Assembly: GCA_045110585.1 (NCBI GenBank) | Contig: JBGCGG010000063.1 | Span: forward strand, 11,732-75,731 | Origin: Phormidesmis sp. | GTDB taxonomy: Bacteria > Cyanobacteriota > Cyanobacteriia > Phormidesmidales > Phormidesmidaceae | Length of the DNA stretch: 64,000 nucleotides | Reading direction: 5' to 3' | Shown: in pieces, positions 18,972-29,037 of the stretch | Position numbering within the stretch: the stretch's first letter is position 1 | How the letters are laid out: the number at the start of each line of letters is the position of its first letter | Position numbers and translations under genes: made by a program | Notes under the pieces: generated by a model | The model's input: the letters and a program-made list of their open reading frames with translations, nothing else | The model's database searches: none | Told to the model about the DNA's origin: nothing

Positions 18972-19148
18972 TTGCTTAAGAGACTGGTTTAAGAGATTGC
19001 AATTTAGACGGGCTATGGAGTTTGTCTGAATCTGCTGTGTTCGGTTTCGGGCGGATTCCTAGAACAGATTCCTTTATTTGTGCAAATCAACCGCGCTAGC
19101 TGAGAATGTAAACTATCTTTTACGGAATAGGCATAGAAGGAGAACCCC

Positions 19149-20588
19149 TTGGCAACAGATTCGGCATTTGATTACGACTTGGTGATTATCGGCGCGGGCG
19201 TCGGTGGTCATGGCGCAGCGCTTCATGCAGTGAAGCGAGGTCTCAAAACCGCGATTATTGAAGCGGGTGATATGGGGGGCACCTGCGTGAATCGAGGCTG
19301 CATTCCGTCTAAGGCTCTGTTGGCCGCTTCGGGTCGAGTTCGTGAAATGCGCGATGAACAGCATCTGAAGGCGATGGGTATCAGCCTTGCGGGCGTTGGT
19401 TTTGATCGAGCAGGCATTGCTGATCATGCGAAGAATTTGGTGAGTAAGATCCAGGGCGATTTGACGAATAGTCTGGAGCGTTTGGGCGTAGAGACCATTC
19501 GCGGCTGGGGCAAGATTGCTGGGAGTCAAAAGGTTTCTGTGCAGACGAACGAAGGCACTAAAACAATTACGGCTAAAGATATTATTTTGTCTCCAGGGTC
19601 GGTGCCGTTTGTGCCTCGCGGCATTGAGACTGATGGCAAAACGGTTTATACCAGCGATGAAGCGATTCGGTTGGATTGGCTGCCTGAGTGGGTGGCGATT
19701 ATTGGCAGCGGTTACATCGGCCTAGAGTTTTCAGATGTCTACACGGCGCTGGGATCGGAAGTGACCATGATTGAGGCCATGAATCAGCTCATGCCGACGT
19801 TTGATCCAGATATTGCGAAGCAGGCAGAGCGTGTGCTGATTAAGCCCCGTGATATTGAAACGAAGGTAGGGCTGTTGGCCAAGAAAATTACGCCAGGCTC
19901 CCCTGTGGTGATTGAGCTAGCCGATCCAAAGACGATGGAGACGGTTGAGACGCTTGAAGTGGATGCTTGTTTGGTGGCTACTGGGCGCATTCCAGCGACG
20001 AAGAATTTGGATTTGAACATGGTGGCGGTCGAGACGGATCGCCGTGGGTTTATTCCGGTGAGCGATCTCCTAGAAGTGATCCGCGATGGCAAACCCGTCC
20101 CTCATCTGTACGCCATTGGTGACGCCAACGGCAAAATGATGCTGGCGCACTCCGCATCTGCCCAAGGCATTGTGGCGGTCGATAATATTTGTGGCGAAGA
20201 GCGCACGGTAGACTACAACGCGATTCCGGCGGCGGCGTTTACGCATCCGGAGGTAAGCTTTGTCGGCATGACCGAGCCTGCCGCCAAGGAAAAAGCAAAG
20301 GCAGAAGGCTACGAGGTGGCCTCTGTGCGGAGCTATTTTAAGGCGAACTCTAAGGCGTTAGCTGAAGGTGAAACAGAAGGCTTGGCGAAAGTGATATATC
20401 GCAAAGATACGGGCGAAGTGATGGGAGCGCATATCATTGGCCTGCACGCAGCAGATCTAATTCAGGAAGCGGCGAATGCGATCGCCCAGAAGCAATCCGT
20501 CACTGAACTCTCCCAGTATGTGCATACGCATCCAACGCTATCTGAAGTGTTAGATGAAGCCTACAAGCGCGCCAAGGTGAGCGCTTAG
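19149..20588 (+). CDS. lpdA: Dihydrolipoyl dehydrogenase
   Basis: [19 protein letters not shown] redox disulfide, [14 protein letters not shown]; TTG start after an AAGGAG SD. Confidence 0.96.
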
Positions 20589-20595
20589 GATTGCC

Positions 20596-20769
20596 GTGCT
20601 CCGATAAGTTCTGAGCCCCGCCCTGCTGAGTACCCCCTCCCTCTTGCTGTCGCTTGAGTCAACGTCAAGAGGGAGAGAAAGGCTGTGACTTGAATGCAAA
20701 TCCTTCAGAGCCTTGTTACTCATAGCCAGCCATATCCCCCTCTTGGGAGAGGCTAGGGGTGCTCCGATA
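20596..20769. repeat. GC-rich structured dispersed repeat (REP/MITE-like) between lpdA and trpC, bracketed by an 11-bp direct repeat
   Basis: gtgctccgata at 20596-20606 and 20759-20769; near-inverted ends gagtacccc/ggggtgctc; internal ctccctcttg/caagagggag arms; head motif shared with 47718-47739. Confidence 0.55.
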
Positions 20770-20809
20770 TCTATGAAACTAGCCAATTCACAACAGAAAG
20801 ACGCCTCCC

Positions 20810-21706
20810 ATGCAAATTCGCCGCCGCCCCCCAAACCCTGCTATCTCTGTCGCTACCCTTGAATACAAAATTAAGGCTGATGACGCGGAACCGCGCAACA
20901 TTTTAGAAAAAATTGTGTGGCACAAAGAAACTGAGGTAGATCGGATGCGGGAGAAATTACCGCTGAGAGATTTGCAGCGGCAGGTACAGGATTTGCCTGC
21001 CACCAAAGGGTTTGTGAATGCGCTACGGGCACAAGCTAAACAACAGGCTCCAGCGATTATTACAGAAGTGAAGAAAGCGTCTCCGAGTAAGGGCGTGATT
21101 AGAGAAGACTTTGATCCGGTGGCGATCGCTCAAAGCTATCAGTCCGGTGGTGCAACCTGCCTTTCTGTTCTCACCGATAGCAAATTTTTTCAAGGCAGCT
21201 TCGAGTATCTCAGCCAAATCCGTCAGGCGGTGGCGCTGCCGCTGCTGTGCAAAGAATTTATTATCTACCCCTATCAAATTTATAAAGCTCGCGCGGCTGG
21301 CGCGGATGCAGTGCTGTTAATTGCGGCGCTTTTGAGCGACAAAGATCTGACTTATTTTGTCAAAATTGCCAAGGTATTAGGATTAGATGCGCTGGTAGAA
21401 ACCCATACGGCTGAAGAGTTTGAGCGTGTGATGGCCATTGACGGGGTTGATCTCGTGGGAATCAACAACCGGAATTTAGAAGACTTTACGGTGAGCTTGG
21501 CAACTACTGAGCAGCTGACGTCCGCGTATAAAGACAACATTGCTGAGAAACAGGTGATGATTGTCAGTGAGTCTGGTTTGCATACTCCAGAAGATGTACA
21601 GACTGTTATGGCTGCAGGTGCACAAGCTATCTTAGTAGGAGAATCTCTGGTGAAACAGCAAGATCCAGGGGGTGCGATCGCCCGTCTACTGAACAGAGCT
21701 ACTTAA
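20810..21706 (+). CDS. trpC: Indole-3-glycerol phosphate synthase
   Basis: [41 protein letters not shown]. Confidence 0.97.
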
Positions 21707-21812
21707 GCCAGACTGCTTAACAGGACGGCCTGATAGGTAACTGCTAATAGGTAACTGTTTAATTTCAGTAGACGCAATAAAAGGCTCATAAAACCTAACT
21801 CGTCTCTTAAGC

Positions 21813-22097
21813 ATGGCTCCTGCTCGCTCGCCTGTTCCGCTACCGTCTCATATTCACTACGAACTCCTGTTGCAGCTGTTAGAGCGTCAAACGGCAGAAG
21901 GTTTCCGCCAAGAACCCTCACAAAAAGAACAGCTGCAAATTTTGATTGGCACGCTGCGTAAGGCTTTTTCACAGCAAAAACAGCTCGAAGAAAGCTGTCT
22001 GCGATCTCGAATACCCGTTGAATATCACTGGTCGCTAAATCAAGGACAAAATGAGGTTTATACTAAGAAATCTATAGTTAGTGAAACTTCGGTATGA
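21813..22097 (+). CDS. DUF5340-like small cyanobacterial protein
   Basis: [19 protein letters not shown]...[13 protein letters not shown]...EYHWS; its stop overlaps the crtI start (ATGA). Confidence 0.75.
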
Positions 22098-23752
22098 GTC
22101 GCAAGAAAGCCATCATTATTGGTTCAGGGATCGGTGGATTGTCTTTGGGCATTCGGTTGCAAAGTTTAGGATTTGACACCACTATCTTTGAAAAATTAGA
22201 TGCGCCTGGCGGCCGAGCCTATGTTCGTAAAGTAGATGGGTTTGTTTTTGATATGGGGCCAACGGTGCTTACCGTGCCTCACTTCATTGAGGAGCTATTT
22301 GCGCTGGAAAGAGATGCGGCTGATTTAGGTAGCCCGGACTTTCCCACTGAAATTATGGATCCGGCTAACCGGGTTAAAAGCGGGGTGACCAGTGGGCCAA
22401 ACACCTCCAAATACGTCAAGATTATTCCTATCCTGCCGTTTTATCGTATCTACTTTGACGACGGCACTTACTTTGATTACGACGGCGATCCGGAGAGTAC
22501 TCGCCGTCAAATTGAAGCGATTGAACCGGATGATTTGGCCGGATACGAGAAGTTTCATGAAGCGGCAAAGGCCATCTTTGACAGAGGCTTTGTAGAGCTG
22601 GGCTATACCTACTTTGGTACGGTCATGGACATGCTCAAAGTGGCCCCAGACTTAATTAAATTGGATGCGCTGCGGCCTTTATTCTCTTTCGTCAAAGACT
22701 ATTTCAAGAGTCCTAAGCTTCAACAGGTATTTAGCTTTGAGCCTTTGCTGGTGGGCGGAAGTCCGCTGAGCGTGCCTGCTATCTACGCCATGATTCACTT
22801 CGTGGAGAAAACTTGGGGCATTCACTTTGCCATGGGCGGCACAGGTGCGTTGGTTAATGGCTTTGTGCGTAAGTTTGAAGAGCTGGGCGGCACGATTCAG
22901 TACAACAGTGAAGTTGCCAAAATTGATGTGGAAGGCTCTTTGTTTGGGAAAAAGCAGGCCAAGGGTATTGAGCTAAAGGACGGTAGCTACCATGCGGCTG
23001 ATTTAGTGGCTTCTAACGGCGACTATGCCAACACCTACATGAAGCTAATTGATTCAAAGTATCGCCTGATTAACCAAGATTTGAAGATTAAGCTGACGAA
23101 GCAATCTATGTCTGTGTTGGTGATTTACTTTGGCTTCAAAGCAGATGGTTTAGACGATTTGGATCTGCGGCATCACAACATTATTTTGGGGCCTCGCTAC
23201 GAAGAGTTGCTCAAAGAAATCTTTGATAAGAAGGTGCTCAGCCCTGACTTCTCACAGTATTTGCACATTCCTTCTCTCACCGATCCCAGCATGGCTCCGG
23301 CTGGTCATCATGCGGCCTACACGTTGGTGCCTGTGCCTAACAATGGCAGCAACATCGACTGGGATGTAGAAGGGCCTAAGCTCACCGATAAGGTGCTGAC
23401 ATTTTTGGAAGAACGTGGCTATATTCCTGGCCTGAAAGAGCGGTTGGTTTATCAGAGCCATATCACCCCTGACTACTTTGAAGGTACGCTCAACAGCTAT
23501 TTAGGAAATGCCTTTGGGGTAGAACCTGTGCTGGTTCAGAGTGCATTCTTCCGGCCGCACAACCGCAGCGAAGATATTGAAAACCTCTACTTGGTGGGGG
23601 CGAATACTCAGCCTGGGGGCGGTACGCCTTCTGTGATGATGTGCGCGAAGATGACGGCGCGTGAGGTTGCTAAGAACTTCAATATTTCATTGGATGTGGT
23701 GAATGGAAAGGGTGAGGCAGAAGCGCCTGAGCCAGAAGTTGCTGCGGTCTAA
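22094..23752 (+). CDS. crtI: Bacterial-type phytoene desaturase (CrtI family)
   Basis: [57 protein letters not shown]. Confidence 0.85.
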
Positions 23753-23838
23753 TGTATAGCGATTTCATAATGTATGACGGTCTAATCACGATCTAATGTA
23801 TGACGGTTTAATGACGGTCTAATTTAGGGTTTCTAACT

Positions 23839-24618
23839 ATGCTGCCTAAAGAGGCCATGCTGAAGGGTGCGGAGAACAAGGAAGCGCTCTCGCGCATTAT
23901 TGATAAAGCTGAGCAGGCGATTCGTACCTGGGAGCCAGTGGCGACAGATTTTTTGTCGCCGCCTGAGCTATTTGAAGCGCAAGCCGCGTTTGAGCGTTTG
24001 GCCGATGTACATACGCTTGCCAGTGGTGGTTATCCCCAGGCGGAGCGCCAGCGATTATTGATTGCGCGGTCCGAAATTCCTTTAGAGGAAATGCCGGTGC
24101 CGTTAGCTGCTTTGAGCATTGCGGGCAATTTTTTGTTTGATACCGCAACCCATCGAGATTTCTTGGGATCGCTGCTGGGTACGGGATTGGTTCGCGCTAA
24201 GGTCGGTGACATTATTGTGCTGGGTGAGCGCGGGGCGCAGGCGATTGTGGTGCCTGAGCTGGTGGAGTTTTTGACGGGCGCGCTGGTGCAGGTGCGGTCG
24301 GTGGCGGTGAAAACGACCCCCATGGAGATGGGTGAGCTGCGGATCCGGGCGCCGAAGAAAAAGGAGATGACGACGGTGGAGGCTTCAATGCGCTTGGATG
24401 CGATCGCCTCTGCTGGCTTTGGGATGTCGCGTAGCAAGATGGCGGACATGATTACCAAAGGGGATGTGCGGGTGAATTGGAAGCCGGTAACCCAATCGAG
24501 TAAGACTGTGGACACGGGTGATTTAGTCGCTATCCGAGGCAAAGGGCGGCTGGAAGTTGGGGATGTGGCGATTACGAAGAAGCAGCGCTATCGGGTTCAG
24601 CTAACGCGGCTTGTATAG
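23839..24618 (+). CDS. Photosystem II S4-domain protein (Sll1252/YlmH-like)
   Basis: TDFLSPPEL, GGYPQAER, HRDFLGSLL, SMRLDAIASAGFGMSRSK, GKGRLEV. Confidence 0.9.
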   Translation: MLPKEAMLKGAENKEALSRIIDKAEQAIRTWEPVATDFLSPPELFEAQAAFERLADVHTLASGGYPQAERQRLLIARSEIPLEEMPVPLAALSIAGNFLFDTATHRDFLGSLLGTGLVRAKVGDIIVLGERGAQAIVVPELVEFLTGALVQVRSVAVKTTPMEMGELRIRAPKKKEMTTVEASMRLDAIASAGFGMSRSKMADMITKGDVRVNWKPVTQSSKTVDTGDLVAIRGKGRLEVGDVAITKKQRYRVQLTRLV

Positions 24619-24877
24619 CCTGAATTAGCCTGAAGTTTAGCTAGCGCGCGGAATCTTATCATTATTTCTTAATCTATTTCTGATGGCTGCAAGCCGTCAG
24701 AGGTGCCGGTGTGCGCAGAAATGCGGAGACTGGGATGAAGCCTGCCGTAGCATACGCAGACGTTCGAGTTCGATTTTAAGTGCGTGTATGGCGGGTAGCT
24801 CAACTTGAAATAGAGGCATTGAGCTAATGATTTTATTAATTTGACTGGGTTTTTCGTGAATTTAGATTATTTTGTTG

Positions 24878-24918
24878 ACACGTGAATATACGGGTAAAAT
24901 ATCCGTGTATTCACGTGT
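24878..24918. promoter_or_regulatory. Palindrome overlapping a TTGACA hexamer upstream of the 25038 gene; possible operator
   Basis: 11-bp perfect arms acacgtgaata / tattcacgtgt; TTGACA at 24875-24880. Confidence 0.35.
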
Positions 24919-25037
24919 ATCCATGTAGATTTTATTTAGATGCTGTATTCTCCAGGCGAATTTGCCGGGGAGTTGCAAAATTTTTCTGTAGAAAGGGGTG
25001 TTGCTGTCTGTGAGAAAAATCTACCGAGTGTTTATAA

Positions 25038-26594
25038 ATGCCCCGTTTGAGCGATCGCGCTTTTCACATTGTTAAAACTGAAATTGAGCGCCGATATACT
25101 GACCATCCAGAAGATCAAATTGAGCGTGTTATCTTACTCGCGAGACTAGAAGCCCTTCGTGAAAAGAAAGGGGTGCCCATGACGCGAGTGCAGATTTGGG
25201 AAGTTCTCAGTGACGTAGCACCTAACTTTGACCAGAATGTACTCATGGATGCGGAAAGTGTAGAAACCGATTCTCCATTTTTGGGCGTTTCAATGGGGGT
25301 CGGTGCGGTAGCTGTGCTAGTGGCGACCGCTATTGGCATGGACTCTTTGACCCCTCGGCCCTCTATTGGCCAGTCGTCGCCGGCTAATCTCGCTCAGTCG
25401 GGAGATGATTCGTCGGATGTGGCGAAGCGATCAGCTAGTCAGTCTGCCAGTCAGTCGGCCAATCAAAAGGCCGCTACTGAGCAAGGGCTGGCACAAGGTG
25501 CCAAGCGAGCTGCCGGTACGACGCTTAATGTGACGCAAGCAGGGGGGGATGGCGAAGGCCGCGTAGCGAATACAGGCGCTTCTGAGCCAGCTGACGAAGA
25601 CCCCGAGCCGCTGTTTAGTAAAAATCGCCTACTCAAAAATCGTCTGCCGAAGTTTTCTCGCCACAGTGAAGGAGATGCTCGCAGAAACGCTTTTCACACT
25701 GCTAAGGATTTAGGCTGGCAGGCGGCACTAAAAAGCCAAGATCCGCCTCACAGCGTTCAGCACTGGAGAGAAACAGCAGCGCTTTGGGAAGATGCGCTGG
25801 CTGAACTTGACGAAGTGTCTCCCTTGTCGCGTCACTATATTCAAGCGCAGCTCAAGAAGTCGGTTTATCAGGACAACCTTAAAGAAATTAGAACTCGCCA
25901 AATCGCGGCAGAGCAGCTTGCCCAACAAGCCACCCGTGCTGCGGTTCAGGTAGCCAGTTCAGGGGCCAGTTCAGGAGTCAGCTCAGGGGCCAGCTCAGGG
26001 GCCAGCTCAGCGCTGGCGACGCCTACTGCGAAAGCGGCTCCTGAGTTTTCCGATCAGATTAACCGTTCTGCTGCTGGTCGTTCTGCGGGTAATAGCTCTT
26101 CTGCTCAGACCGTTGCGATGCAAGCCCAGGTGTCAGCGGCACCTGCTGCGGAAGATCCTATTCAGGTGGCGAAACGCTATGGCTGGCAGGCGGCTGTTGC
26201 GAGTCAGAACGCGCCCCATCCGCCAGAGAAATGGGCTGATATTTCGCGCTTGTGGCAAACCGCCCTTTCCAGTTTGAACAAGGTGGCCCCTGAAGATCCT
26301 CGCTACGCAGAAGCGCAGCGGGTAAAGGCTTCGTATCAGAAGAATTTGGCTGCAATCCGCGATCGCTATCAGCGTGAGCAAACCGCCACCCAGCGTCTTC
26401 AGTCTTTGCAGGCAAGCTTGAGCGAGCTCAACAACTCACTGACGCCCGATGCGGTGAAATATGGGCGGATGGAAGCCATCTTAGAAAAGCTAAGGACTAT
26501 TCCCTCAGGGACTGAAGCCCATGTGCAGGCTCAGCAGCTAATAGCCGAGACTACCACCGCGCTAAATGCGATCGCGATTACGCCTGAGCTCTGA
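25038..26594 (+). CDS. Hypothetical single-TM protein with two copies of a helical (TPR-like) domain
   Basis: TM FLGVSMGVGAVAVLVATAIG; repeats GWQAALKSQDPPH..W...A.LWEDAL and GWQAAVASQNAPH..W..I.RLWQTAL. Confidence 0.7.
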   Translation: MPRLSDRAFHIVKTEIERRYTDHPEDQIERVILLARLEALREKKGVPMTRVQIWEVLSDVAPNFDQNVLMDAESVETDSPFLGVSMGVGAVAVLVATAIGMDSLTPRPSIGQSSPANLAQSGDDSSDVAKRSASQSASQSANQKAATEQGLAQGAKRAAGTTLNVTQAGGDGEGRVANTGASEPADEDPEPLFSKNRLLKNRLPKFSRHSEGDARRNAFHTAKDLGWQAALKSQDPPHSVQHWRETAALWEDALAELDEVSPLSRHYIQAQLKKSVYQDNLKEIRTRQIAAEQLAQQATRAAVQVASSGASSGVSSGASSGASSALATPTAKAAPEFSDQINRSAAGRSAGNSSSAQTVAMQAQVSAAPAAEDPIQVAKRYGWQAAVASQNAPHPPEKWADISRLWQTALSSLNKVAPEDPRYAEAQRVKASYQKNLAAIRDRYQREQTATQRLQSLQASLSELNNSLTPDAVKYGRMEAILEKLRTIPSGTEAHVQAQQLIAETTTALNAIAITPEL

Positions 26595-26964: not shown

Positions 26965-29037
26965 ATGGAATCCGCAGAGGCCATTTATCAATACGCTTGG
27001 CTCATACCCGTTCTGCCCCTCCTCGGCGCAGCGATTGTGGGCACAGGTCTTATCACTTATAACGAGGCGACGAACAAGCTTAGAAAGCTCGTCTCTACCT
27101 TCATCGTCAGCCTAATTGGCACGGCGATGGTTTTATCTATCCTGATTTTAGTTAGTCAGTTTCAGGGCCACGCGCCCTACACCTACTTGATCGAATGGGC
27201 CTCCGCCGGAGACTTTCAGATCGATATGGGCTTTACCATCGATCACATCACGTCGCTGATGTTGGTCATTGTCACCACTGTGGCCTTGTTGGTGATGATC
27301 TACACCGATGGCTACATGGCGCATGACCCTAGCTATGTTCGCTTTTATGCGTACCTGAGCTTATTTAGTTCATCCATGCTGGGTTTGGTGGTTAGCCCTA
27401 ACCTGTTGCAGGTGTACGTGTTCTGGGAGCTGGTAGGCATGTGTTCTTACCTGCTTATTGGCTACTGGTACGACCGCGATGGGGCTGCTGATGCCTGCCA
27501 GAAAGCTTTTGTGACCAACCGTGTGGGCGATTTTGGCCTATTGCTTGGGATGCTGGGCTTGTTTTGGGCCACCGGCACATTTGAATTTGATTTGATGGGC
27601 GAGCGGTTAACTGATTTGGTCTCTATGGGCACCATTTCAGGCGCACTGGCTGCGCTGTTTGCCATTTTGGTCTTTATGGGGCCGATGGCAAAATCTGCGC
27701 AGTTCCCGCTGCACGTATGGTTGCCTGATGCGATGGAAGGGCCAACCCCTATCTCGGCGCTGATTCATGCGGCAACAATGGTGGCCGCAGGCGTATTTTT
27801 GATCGCCCGGATGTACCCCGTCTTTGAAGAGATTCCGACGGTGATGACCGTGATTGCTTGGACAGGTACGATTACGGCCTTTTTAGGTGCGTCCATTGCC
27901 ATTACTCAAAACGATATTAAGAAGGGTCTTGCCTTCTCTACCATGTCTCAGCTTGGCTACATGGTCATGGCGATGGGCGTGGGGGCATACACTGCGGGCT
28001 TGTTTCACCTGATGACTCACGCTTACTTTAAGGCGATGCTGTTCTTAGGGTCCGGGTCTGTGATTCATGGCATGGAAGAAGTTGTCGGCCACGATCCTGT
28101 GCTGGCTCAAGACATGCGCTTGATGGGCGGTTTGCGGAAGTATATGCCTGTTACAGCGATTACGTTTCTCATCGGTACGCTGGCGATTTCGGGTTTGCCT
28201 CCGTTTGCAGGTTTCTGGTCTAAGGATGAGATTCTGGGGTCTGTGTTTGCGGTGAATCCGTTGATGTGGGCTATTGGCTGGCTAACGGCAGGGATAACGG
28301 CCTTCTACATGTTCCGCATGTACTTCTCCACATTTGAAGGTGAGTTTCGCGGCAATGATAAGGACTTGCGTAAGCAGGTGAAGGTTCAGTCTTTACAGCT
28401 GGCGGGTGCTTCTTTAGGCCCTGGTGCGATGAGCACTCAGGAGCTGACGGTAGAAGACGCTGGTCACGGTGACCATCACCATGCAGAAGAGCCGCATGAG
28501 TCTACCCTGACCATGATTTTGCCCTTGATGGTGCTGGCGGTGCCTTCTGTTTTAGTGGGCTTAGTGGGTACCCCGTTTGCGAACTACTTTGAGGCGTTTA
28601 TTCATCCTGCGGGTGAAGCGCTGACCGTGGCTGAAATTGCAGAAGAGGTTGACATTAGCGAATTTGTGCGGATGGCAGGCGCTTCTGTGGCTATTTCGGT
28701 GGCTGGTATTGTGCTGGCGGTGTTGATGTATCGGATGAAGAAGATTGATCCGAGTGCGATCGCTGCCAAGATTAAGCCTCTTTACAATCTCTCGCTCAAC
28801 AAGTGGTACATCGACGATATCTATCGCGAAGTGTTTATTAAAGGCACGCGTAACCTTGCTAAAGGTGTGTTGAATGTCGATGTCAAGATTGTGGACGGGA
28901 TTGTGAATCTCACAGGCTTTGTCACGCTGATCTCGGGTGAAGGGCTGAAGTACTTTGAGAATGGTCGTGCTCAGTTCTACGCGCTGATTGTGTTTGGTGC
29001 GGTGCTTGGCCTGGTGTTTCTGTCAGGTTTGACGTAG
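26965..29037 (+). CDS. ndhF1: NAD(P)H-quinone oxidoreductase subunit 5 (NdhF1)
   Basis: YAWLIPVLPL, YTDGYMAHD, FWELVGMCSYLLIG, KSAQFPLHVWLPDAMEGPTPISALIHAATMV, ENGRAQFY. Confidence 0.96.
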   Translation: MESAEAIYQYAWLIPVLPLLGAAIVGTGLITYNEATNKLRKLVSTFIVSLIGTAMVLSILILVSQFQGHAPYTYLIEWASAGDFQIDMGFTIDHITSLMLVIVTTVALLVMIYTDGYMAHDPSYVRFYAYLSLFSSSMLGLVVSPNLLQVYVFWELVGMCSYLLIGYWYDRDGAADACQKAFVTNRVGDFGLLLGMLGLFWATGTFEFDLMGERLTDLVSMGTISGALAALFAILVFMGPMAKSAQFPLHVWLPDAMEGPTPISALIHAATMVAAGVFLIARMYPVFEEIPTVMTVIAWTGTITAFLGASIAITQNDIKKGLAFSTMSQLGYMVMAMGVGAYTAGLFHLMTHAYFKAMLFLGSGSVIHGMEEVVGHDPVLAQDMRLMGGLRKYMPVTAITFLIGTLAISGLPPFAGFWSKDEILGSVFAVNPLMWAIGWLTAGITAFYMFRMYFSTFEGEFRGNDKDLRKQVKVQSLQLAGASLGPGAMSTQELTVEDAGHGDHHHAEEPHESTLTMILPLMVLAVPSVLVGLVGTPFANYFEAFIHPAGEALTVAEIAEEVDISEFVRMAGASVAISVAGIVLAVLMYRMKKIDPSAIAAKIKPLYNLSLNKWYIDDIYREVFIKGTRNLAKGVLNVDVKIVDGIVNLTGFVTLISGEGLKYFENGRAQFYALIVFGAVLGLVFLSGLT

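Follow-up and report, generated by a model that had tools for sequence, protein, structure and literature searches.

An insert-type CrtI as the probable sole phytoene desaturase of a Phormidesmis cyanobacterium, in place of the plant-type CrtP/CrtQ/CrtH route

Published accounts up to 2025 hold that Gloeobacter is alone among oxygenic phototrophs in using CrtI, a phytoene desaturase of bacterial type, with every other cyanobacterium using CrtP, CrtQ and CrtH (PMC11857680; PMC7713294; bioRxiv 10.1101/2021.02.18.431691). For example, Gloeobacter is "an exception" for Fournié and Truan (2020; PMC7713294), and Rahmatpour et al. (bioRxiv 10.1101/2021.02.18.431691) assign the plant-type route to "all Cyanobacteria (except Gloeobacter)". 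The latter study also concludes that the substitution in Gloeobacter is secondary, since crtP, crtQ and crtH occur in both Anthocerotibacter and Aurora. In the work of Santana-Molina et al. (2022; PMC9907078), an intermediate branch is described with only "few" sequences from cyanobacteria and Chloroflexi, and we found no literature report of a CrtI-only Phormidesmis, Nodosilinea or Leptolyngbya. Here we analyze a 64,000-nucleotide stretch of DNA from Phormidesmis sp. (contig JBGCGG010000063.1, assembly GCA_045110585.1), hereafter the window, which carries a crtI gene at 22094-23752 on the plus strand. Judged from sequence comparisons, this CrtI is probably the sole phytoene desaturase of the organism, acquired by an old horizontal transfer and replacing CrtP, CrtQ and CrtH.

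Overall, the plant-type and CrtI routes both turn phytoene into all-trans-lycopene, and they share the upstream crtB gene as well as downstream cyanobacterial genes such as crtD, which is present here. The plant-type route employs three or four enzymes and poly-cis intermediates, whereas CrtI is one enzyme working through trans intermediates. CrtI has no need of Z-ISO, CrtH or light-driven isomerisation and is coupled differently to the quinone pool. The closest described system is CrtI of Gloeobacter violaceus (glr0867), which is of the same lineage as the window CrtI (74-75% identity), has the same insert and is of similar length (545-552 amino acids). It is likewise the sole phytoene desaturase of a host without crtP, crtQ and crtH; its activity is published according to the passages of PMC11857680 that cite Steiger 2005 and Tsuchiya 2005, whereas that of the window enzyme is predicted. 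The two systems differ in that the window host is a thylakoid-bearing filamentous crown cyanobacterium of the Phormidesmis group, whose family is otherwise plant-type and in which the former place of crtP is still visible as a scar, and in that the gene context here (trpC/DUF5340-crtI-sll1252) is not that of Gloeobacter. CrtI proteins of Deinococcus-Thermus (D. radiodurans DR0861, Meiothermus) belong to the same subclade, with the insert core, 65-73% identity and the same predicted four-step role, but they are not the nearest relatives, with Deinococcota occurring in several other branches of the subclade, and their host pathways lead to deinoxanthin rather than to beta-carotene, myxol and other cyanobacterial carotenoids. 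The D. radiodurans enzyme is reportedly the subject of work by Xu and colleagues from 2007. Finally, Pantoea ananatis CrtI (structure 4DGK) has the same family, fold, flavin adenine dinucleotide (FAD)-binding motif and C-terminal signature block, but it has no insert after the FIEELFAL helix and falls outside the insert-type clade (a 100/100 split); the window CrtI shares 42-47% identity with comparable Pantoea-type CrtIs.

The window crtI encodes 552 amino acids, exactly as described in an earlier, sequence-only reading of this DNA. It scores 518.7 bits against TIGR02734 (crtI_fam), for which the curated cut-off is 238.1, and is the only crtI_fam match above the cut-off in the whole genome. 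Its best match among solved structures is 4DGK (phmmer, E=1.3e-133). In contrast, it scores below the cut-offs of the CrtH/CRTISO model TIGR02730 (113.8 bits, cut-off 586.9), the cyanobacterial CrtD (C-3',4' desaturase) model TIGR02733 (57.7 bits, cut-off 549.7) and the CrtO beta-carotene ketolase model NF045689 (81.1 bits, cut-off 1000), and the plant-type CrtP/phytoene desaturase (PDS) model TIGR02731 is absent among its family matches. The FAD-binding Rossmann GxGxxG motif lies at residues 7-17, with G10, G12, G14 and G15 invariant in 60 sequences, and PF13450 is matched at 49.7 bits. The C-terminal CrtI block (FRPHN.SEDI..LYLVGA...PG.G.P) is present and aligns with that of Pantoea-type proteins, with a few subclade-wide substitutions. 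An AlphaFold2 model, computed from an alignment of 60 sequences, has a predicted local distance difference test score (pLDDT) of 89.5 and a predicted template-modelling score of 0.91, and its top Foldseek matches, 4REP (E=2e-38) and 4DGK (E=2e-36), identify the three-domain flavoprotein fold of CrtI and CrtD. The product is a genuine CrtI, distinct from CrtH, CrtD and CrtO. Four-step desaturation of phytoene to all-trans-lycopene is its predicted activity, because it shares 74-75% identity with the characterised Gloeobacter enzyme and the genome holds no other candidate.

The sequence-only reading had noted an insert of roughly 30 residues after FIEELFAL that Pantoea-type CrtI lacks. The insert is real and measures 28 residues (72-99, encoded at 22307-22390 on the plus strand). 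The phmmer alignment to 4DGK is interrupted from query residue 72 to 101, a break across which the Pantoea chain simply continues from 70 to 71. In an alignment of 137 sequences all Pantoea-type rows are gapped opposite residues 72-99, and the insert is filled in all 76 non-redundant insert-type rows, with the core L..pDfP....ri..G.sGGp.TS.YV. The long motifs quoted in that reading are also found in the reading frame, at invariant or near-invariant columns of the subclade. In the AlphaFold2 model the insert is ordered (pLDDT about 80-95) and includes a short helix at 85-88. Among 1.84 billion cluster representatives (50%-identity clusters), only two full-length ones align across the insert in a single stretch (66% and 60% identity); all remaining representatives are at most 47% identical to the window CrtI and align in two stretches. 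The insert marks a CrtI subclade of Deinococcota, Chloroflexota, Gloeobacter and many crown cyanobacteria.

A search of the genome for crtP and crtQ had been suggested from the sequence alone, and in this assembly, which is 98.4% complete, both genes are absent, as is crtH. The best genome-wide scores are 118.9 bits for the crtP model (TIGR02731, cut-off 569.4), at a gene other than crtI, 87.9 bits for crtQ (TIGR02732, cut-off 622) and 299 bits for crtH (TIGR02730, cut-off 587). The best crtP-model match is an HpnE/PDS-like flavoprotein of 503-517 amino acids on contig C2 (G000:C2:165351-166694; L001 1435-2988), with full-length weak matches to HpnE (140 bits), CrtP (119) and CrtQ (111), all below cut-off. 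The best crtH-model matches are two CrtISO-like paralogues (about 300 bits to the carot_isom model, cut-off 587), retained at G000:C27:46220-47695 and G000:C210:2845-4347. A true cyanobacterial CrtD is encoded elsewhere (C64:14573-16042; 776.7 bits), and crtB lies on contig C45, unlinked to crtI. The place from which crtP has gone can be recognised. Five crtP-bearing relatives in the family have the arrangement glyA(-), crtP(+), crtB(+), with 1860-2190 base pairs (bp) from glyA to crtB; in the window genome the orthologous glyA (78-81% identity) and crtB (69-73%) are 461 bp apart, and no crtP-like remnant is found in this spacer or elsewhere in the genome. The same crtP-less glyA-crtB junction occurs in every CrtI-bearing genus tested (g1, g158, g161, g171 and g166). 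The clean deletion scar thus indicates that the plant-type route was lost secondarily, and this in turn makes gain of the one-enzyme route by horizontal transfer the best reading. The sequence-only reading had proposed such a transfer, and the scar and the missing crtP, crtQ and crtH support it.

That reading was framed on a single genome, which is indeed CrtI-only, but all 24 genomes of its genus and many other crown cyanobacteria prove to be likewise. In an even sample of 401 genomes from the phylum, insert-type CrtI occurs in two, the window genome and one other (G268). The GTDB family of the window genome comprises 121 genomes, with insert-type CrtI in 74, crtP in 43 and both in 2, leaving 72 of the 74 CrtI genomes without crtP. 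Thirteen other genera of the family carry crtP, crtQ and crtH in conserved synteny; in the genomes with crtP, crtQ is seen as a second match scoring about 305 bits, and crtH is confined to the same genera as crtP. Within the window's genus, CrtI is present in 24 of 24 genomes and crtP, crtQ and crtH in none of them. crtP is likewise missing from 15 further cyanobacteria of other families that have insert-type CrtI (0/15); these were reached through their loci and come without completeness figures, and many of the genomes are metagenome-assembled genomes (MAGs). Genus g166 shows two states: one genome has a CrtI together with a crtP-less glyA-crtB junction whose 965-bp spacer is the longest seen, and another has crtP, crtQ and crtH without CrtI (G410 versus G425; L181). 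The CrtI state in g166 may be a more recent replacement. Additionally, rhodopsin genes (PF01036) occur in 32 of the 121 family genomes and 11 of the 24 in the genus (e.g., G416:C84:4754-5407 and G430:C87:6056-6715). Their pattern depends neither on CrtI nor on crtP. Co-transfer or co-occurrence of CrtI with xanthorhodopsin was considered and rejected, PF01036 being patchy, present also in crtP genera and absent from the window genome.

The closest proteins to the window CrtI (85-94% identity) are those of Phormidesmis priestleyi, cf. Phormidesmis LEGE 11477 and marine MAGs named "Cyanobacteria bacterium". Next are the protein of ES-bin-313, a MAG labelled Gloeobacterales (80%), and those of Gloeobacter morelensis and G. 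violaceus (74-75%) and of Rhizonema (73-74%). Meiothermus, Trueperaceae and Nodosilinea are among the remoter members of the subclade. A scan with Meiothermus taiwanensis CrtI over one genome per GTDB species found relatives in at least 514 genomes, the best 80 of which are 72-100% identical to the query. These 80 comprise Deinococcota (Meiothermus, Calidithermus, Trueperaceae and MAGs of Deinococcales), Chloroflexota (Roseiflexus, Chloroflexaceae, Anaerolineae, Thermoflexus and Ktedonobacteria) and cyanobacteria (Nodosilinea, Leptothoe, Leptolyngbya PCC 7375, Adonisia turfae, Tildeniella, a Spirulina MAG and Aphanocapsa lilacina); D. radiodurans CrtI is not among them. The window CrtI is 65-73% identical to all of the 80.

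Maximum-likelihood trees (LG+C20+F+G4) rooted on Pantoea-type CrtIs place the window CrtI inside an insert-type clade with 100/100 support. Comparison with Deinococcus-Thermus and Gloeobacter sequences had been proposed as a check, and the window CrtI groups with the Gloeobacter type, while the CrtH and CrtD models, as given above, score it far below their cut-offs. Cyanobacterial sequences fall into two clades. Clade A (100/98) contains the window genus, one sequence from genus g165, ES-bin-313, Gloeobacter with Aphanocapsa lilacina, and Rhizonema; within it the window genus is nearer to ES-bin-313 than Gloeobacter is. Clade B (100/99) contains Nodosilinea, Adonisia/Leptothoe, the family genera g158, g161, g166 and g171, and G268. 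The former has as its sister a mix of Trueperaceae, Deinococcales, Roseiflexus and Aggregatilineales whose order the trees do not settle; the latter groups with Meiothermus, Calidithermus and one Trueperaceae sequence (support 91 in one tree and 84/90 in another). Cyanobacteria are monophyletic in none of 200 bootstrap trees, and an approximately unbiased (AU) test rejects cyanobacterial CrtI as one group (difference in log-likelihood 53, p=0.004). This test was run without L077 and L106, two sequences with non-cyanobacterial labels that are nested in clade B and had confounded a first run. A two-gene organismal tree from GlyA and a neighbouring 354-amino-acid protein (779 columns), itself weakly supported, groups the window genus with g158 and g161 (91/99), both of which carry clade-B CrtI. 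A single loss of the plant-type route among the CrtI genera is possible, because this tree leaves the positions of g171 and g166 open. As a separate observation, the labels of three sequences do not match their clades: L077 (a Chloroflexaceae MAG) and L106 (an uncultured bacterium) sit inside clade B, and L126 (a Roseobacter MAG) sits among Chloroflexota. These are either binning errors or further transfers.

In the explanation that we favour, an ancestor whose glyA-crtP-crtB locus was of the normal cyanobacterial kind would have gained an insert-type CrtI by horizontal transfer and would then have lost crtP, crtQ and crtH. Today the crtB on contig C45 would make 15-cis-phytoene, and the FAD-dependent CrtI would perform all four desaturations together with the cis-to-trans isomerisation that yields all-trans-lycopene. 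The CrtI of the genus (the Phormidesmis priestleyi group) is of one lineage with Gloeobacter CrtI, and its place, with trpC/DUF5340 on one side and sll1252 on the other, is fixed and peculiar to the genus. How many transfers took place, and in which direction, is a matter of inference. The donor was probably not Deinococcus; the event was old and extends through the whole genus. The genus may have taken its CrtI from a Gloeobacterales-like donor, may have given CrtI to one, or may have replaced an earlier clade-B CrtI; it may even be that, within this one family, the loss of the plant-type genes was followed by displacement of one CrtI lineage by the other. On a broader scale, we lean towards a recurrent, lineage-wide replacement among crown cyanobacteria that includes Phormidesmis, Nodosilinea, the Leptothoe/Adonisia/Leptolyngbya PCC 7375 group, Tildeniella and Rhizonema, among others. 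Two or more CrtI lineages would have taken part in exchange with Deinococcota and Chloroflexota, and Gloeobacter CrtI would belong to the same exchange network (clade A) rather than being an ancestral relic.

The genes around crtI bear on the age of this event. Upstream on the plus strand lie lpdA (dihydrolipoyl dehydrogenase; 19149-20588; TIGR01350, 426.9 bits), trpC (indole-3-glycerol phosphate synthase; 20810-21706; NF001372, 475 bits) and a DUF5340 gene (21813-22097; PF17275, 109 bits), and downstream, on the same strand, is a gene for an sll1252-family photosystem II S4-domain protein (23839-24618; TIGR03069, 358.6 bits). The order lpdA-trpC-(DUF5340)-crtI-sll1252 is kept across the genus (loci L031-L052); in other genera of the family sll1252 has a different location, adjacent to none of trpC, lpdA and crtI. 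The GC (guanine plus cytosine) content and codon usage of crtI are typical of the genome, with no compositional sign of recent transfer in the gene; this native composition together with the kept synteny therefore points to long residence and an old event. Behind trpC the DUF5340 stop overlaps the crtI start in an ATGA at 22094-22097, an overlap that had been taken to suggest integrated, expressed use. The overlap does exist in the window, but the coupling is not a fixed feature of the genus, because about half of the genus loci have no DUF5340 gene separating trpC from crtI; in loci without it, trpC ends 70-130 bp before crtI. A scan of 19000-25100 for promoters and terminators returned fewer sites than shuffled sequence. 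The sequencing runs that contain this stretch are all DNA runs, and co-transcription of crtI with the upstream genes is presumed.

Several observations weigh against this account of replacement by transfer. The flavoprotein on contig C2 is uncharacterised and is the sole PDS-like sequence in the genome. In genus g165 two MAGs (G424 and G409; 5% contamination, 650-1840 contigs) hold both CrtI and crtP/crtH, with a clade-A CrtI of 77% identity at G424:C379:1482-3101 (L053) and an intact crtP-crtB pair at G424:C277:18077-20596 and G409:C1328:369-2898; a further crtB in G424 is divergent (52%). These MAGs may be composite bins or may represent a real transitional state. The group examined in the AU test was named after the tree had been seen, and the branches that separate clades A and B have support of only 82-90. 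The "Gloeobacterales" assignment of ES-bin-313 is a database label only, and the same contig is also labelled Anaerolineae. Additionally, no empty site for the insertion of crtI was found: neither trpC nor lpdA nor DUF5340 lies within 6 kb of sll1252 in 11 genomes from other genera, and such a site is not definable because the trpC-sll1252 arrangement is genus-specific.

Among the alternatives, a direct transfer from Deinococcus-Thermus into the window genus fares best, and we regard it as unlikely. The sequence-only reading had called the enzyme Deinococcus-like, and the likeness is genuine to the extent that the insert and 65-73% identity are common to Deinococcota, here Meiothermus, Calidithermus, Trueperaceae and Deinococcales MAGs. 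Furthermore, clade B does group with Meiothermus-type and Trueperaceae sequences, and cyanobacterial xanthorhodopsins have been reported as nested within Deinococcota (PMC12779958). However, the window genus lies in clade A with Gloeobacter-type sequences, which are nearer to it (74-80% for those labelled Gloeobacterales) than any Deinococcota sequence, and the sister of that clade is the mixed assemblage described above. Deinococcota are no closer than Chloroflexota, and the label fits the wider subclade only, failing as a sign of the donor. Rhodopsin genes, for their part, do not track CrtI in the family.

Harder still to sustain is a vertical relic, that is, a CrtI of the cyanobacterial ancestor, in keeping with the old view that "Gloeobacter is primitive", kept here and lost in most other lineages; we consider this very improbable. 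Grouping of the genus CrtI with Gloeobacter CrtI and the native composition of crtI would fit such a relic, but the 13 plant-type genera of the same family keep their genes in conserved synteny and the deletion scar lies at that exact locus here. In addition, g158 and g161, which group with the window genus in the two-gene tree, carry the other CrtI lineage, and insert-type CrtI is found in only the two genomes of the phylum sample. The CrtI proteins of the window genome and ES-bin-313, which are closer to each other in clade A than Gloeobacter is to the latter, are 80% identical, whereas housekeeping proteins on that contig are only 52-66% identical. Finally, CrtI-free, crtP-bearing genomes are already seen to branch between the window genus and Gloeobacterales, and the Gloeobacter relatives Anthocerotibacter and Aurora have the plant-type route (bioRxiv 10.1101/2021.02.18.431691).

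Least credible of all, and in our view scarcely tenable, is that the window CrtI performs another desaturation (CrtD-like or zeta-carotene desaturase-like) and that an enzyme such as the C2 flavoprotein desaturates phytoene: CrtI-family enzymes do vary in step number and substrate (PMC7713294) and the C2 protein weakly matches the crtP and HpnE models over its full length, but that match reaches only 119 bits against a crtP cut-off of 569, a true CrtD is present separately, and the window protein combines a high crtI_fam score with low CrtD, CrtH and CrtO scores and with 74-75% identity to an experimentally characterised enzyme.

The kind of enzyme is already known, and database records already name this protein "phytoene desaturase CrtI"; what is notable is that the pathway replacement is broader than had been recognised and has happened repeatedly. 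Among the genomes examined, entire genera of cyanobacteria with thylakoids are CrtI-only, which contradicts statements that confine CrtI to Gloeobacter, and the change is marked by the crtP scar. The finding is relevant to the question of whether the plant-type route is ancestral and to how often it has been displaced. It also bears on the treatment of Gloeobacter traits as primitive, as Gloeobacter CrtI may not be an ancestral relic. We predict that CrtI-only cyanobacteria should be naturally insensitive to bleaching herbicides that target PDS, such as norflurazon. Cultured strains exist (Leptolyngbya sp. PCC 7375, Nodosilinea LEGE strains and Phormidesmis), which makes this prediction directly testable.

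Among the crtI loci of ES-bin-313, Gloeobacter-like genomes, Nodosilinea, Meiothermus and Roseiflexus, crtI itself is the sole shared gene. On the ES-bin-313 contig (L145 7955-11641), crtB and crtI are on opposite strands, with crtB about 1.2 kb upstream, and a DUF2854 gene directly precedes crtI, a layout unlike that of every other crtI locus compared. Further downstream in the window, an ORF at 26965-29037 resembles ndhF. Between sll1252 and this ORF, at 25038-26594, is a 518-amino-acid reading frame rich in Ser/Ala/Gln low-complexity repeats that carries two similar C-terminal-type modules (…GWQAA…QNAPHPPEKW…).

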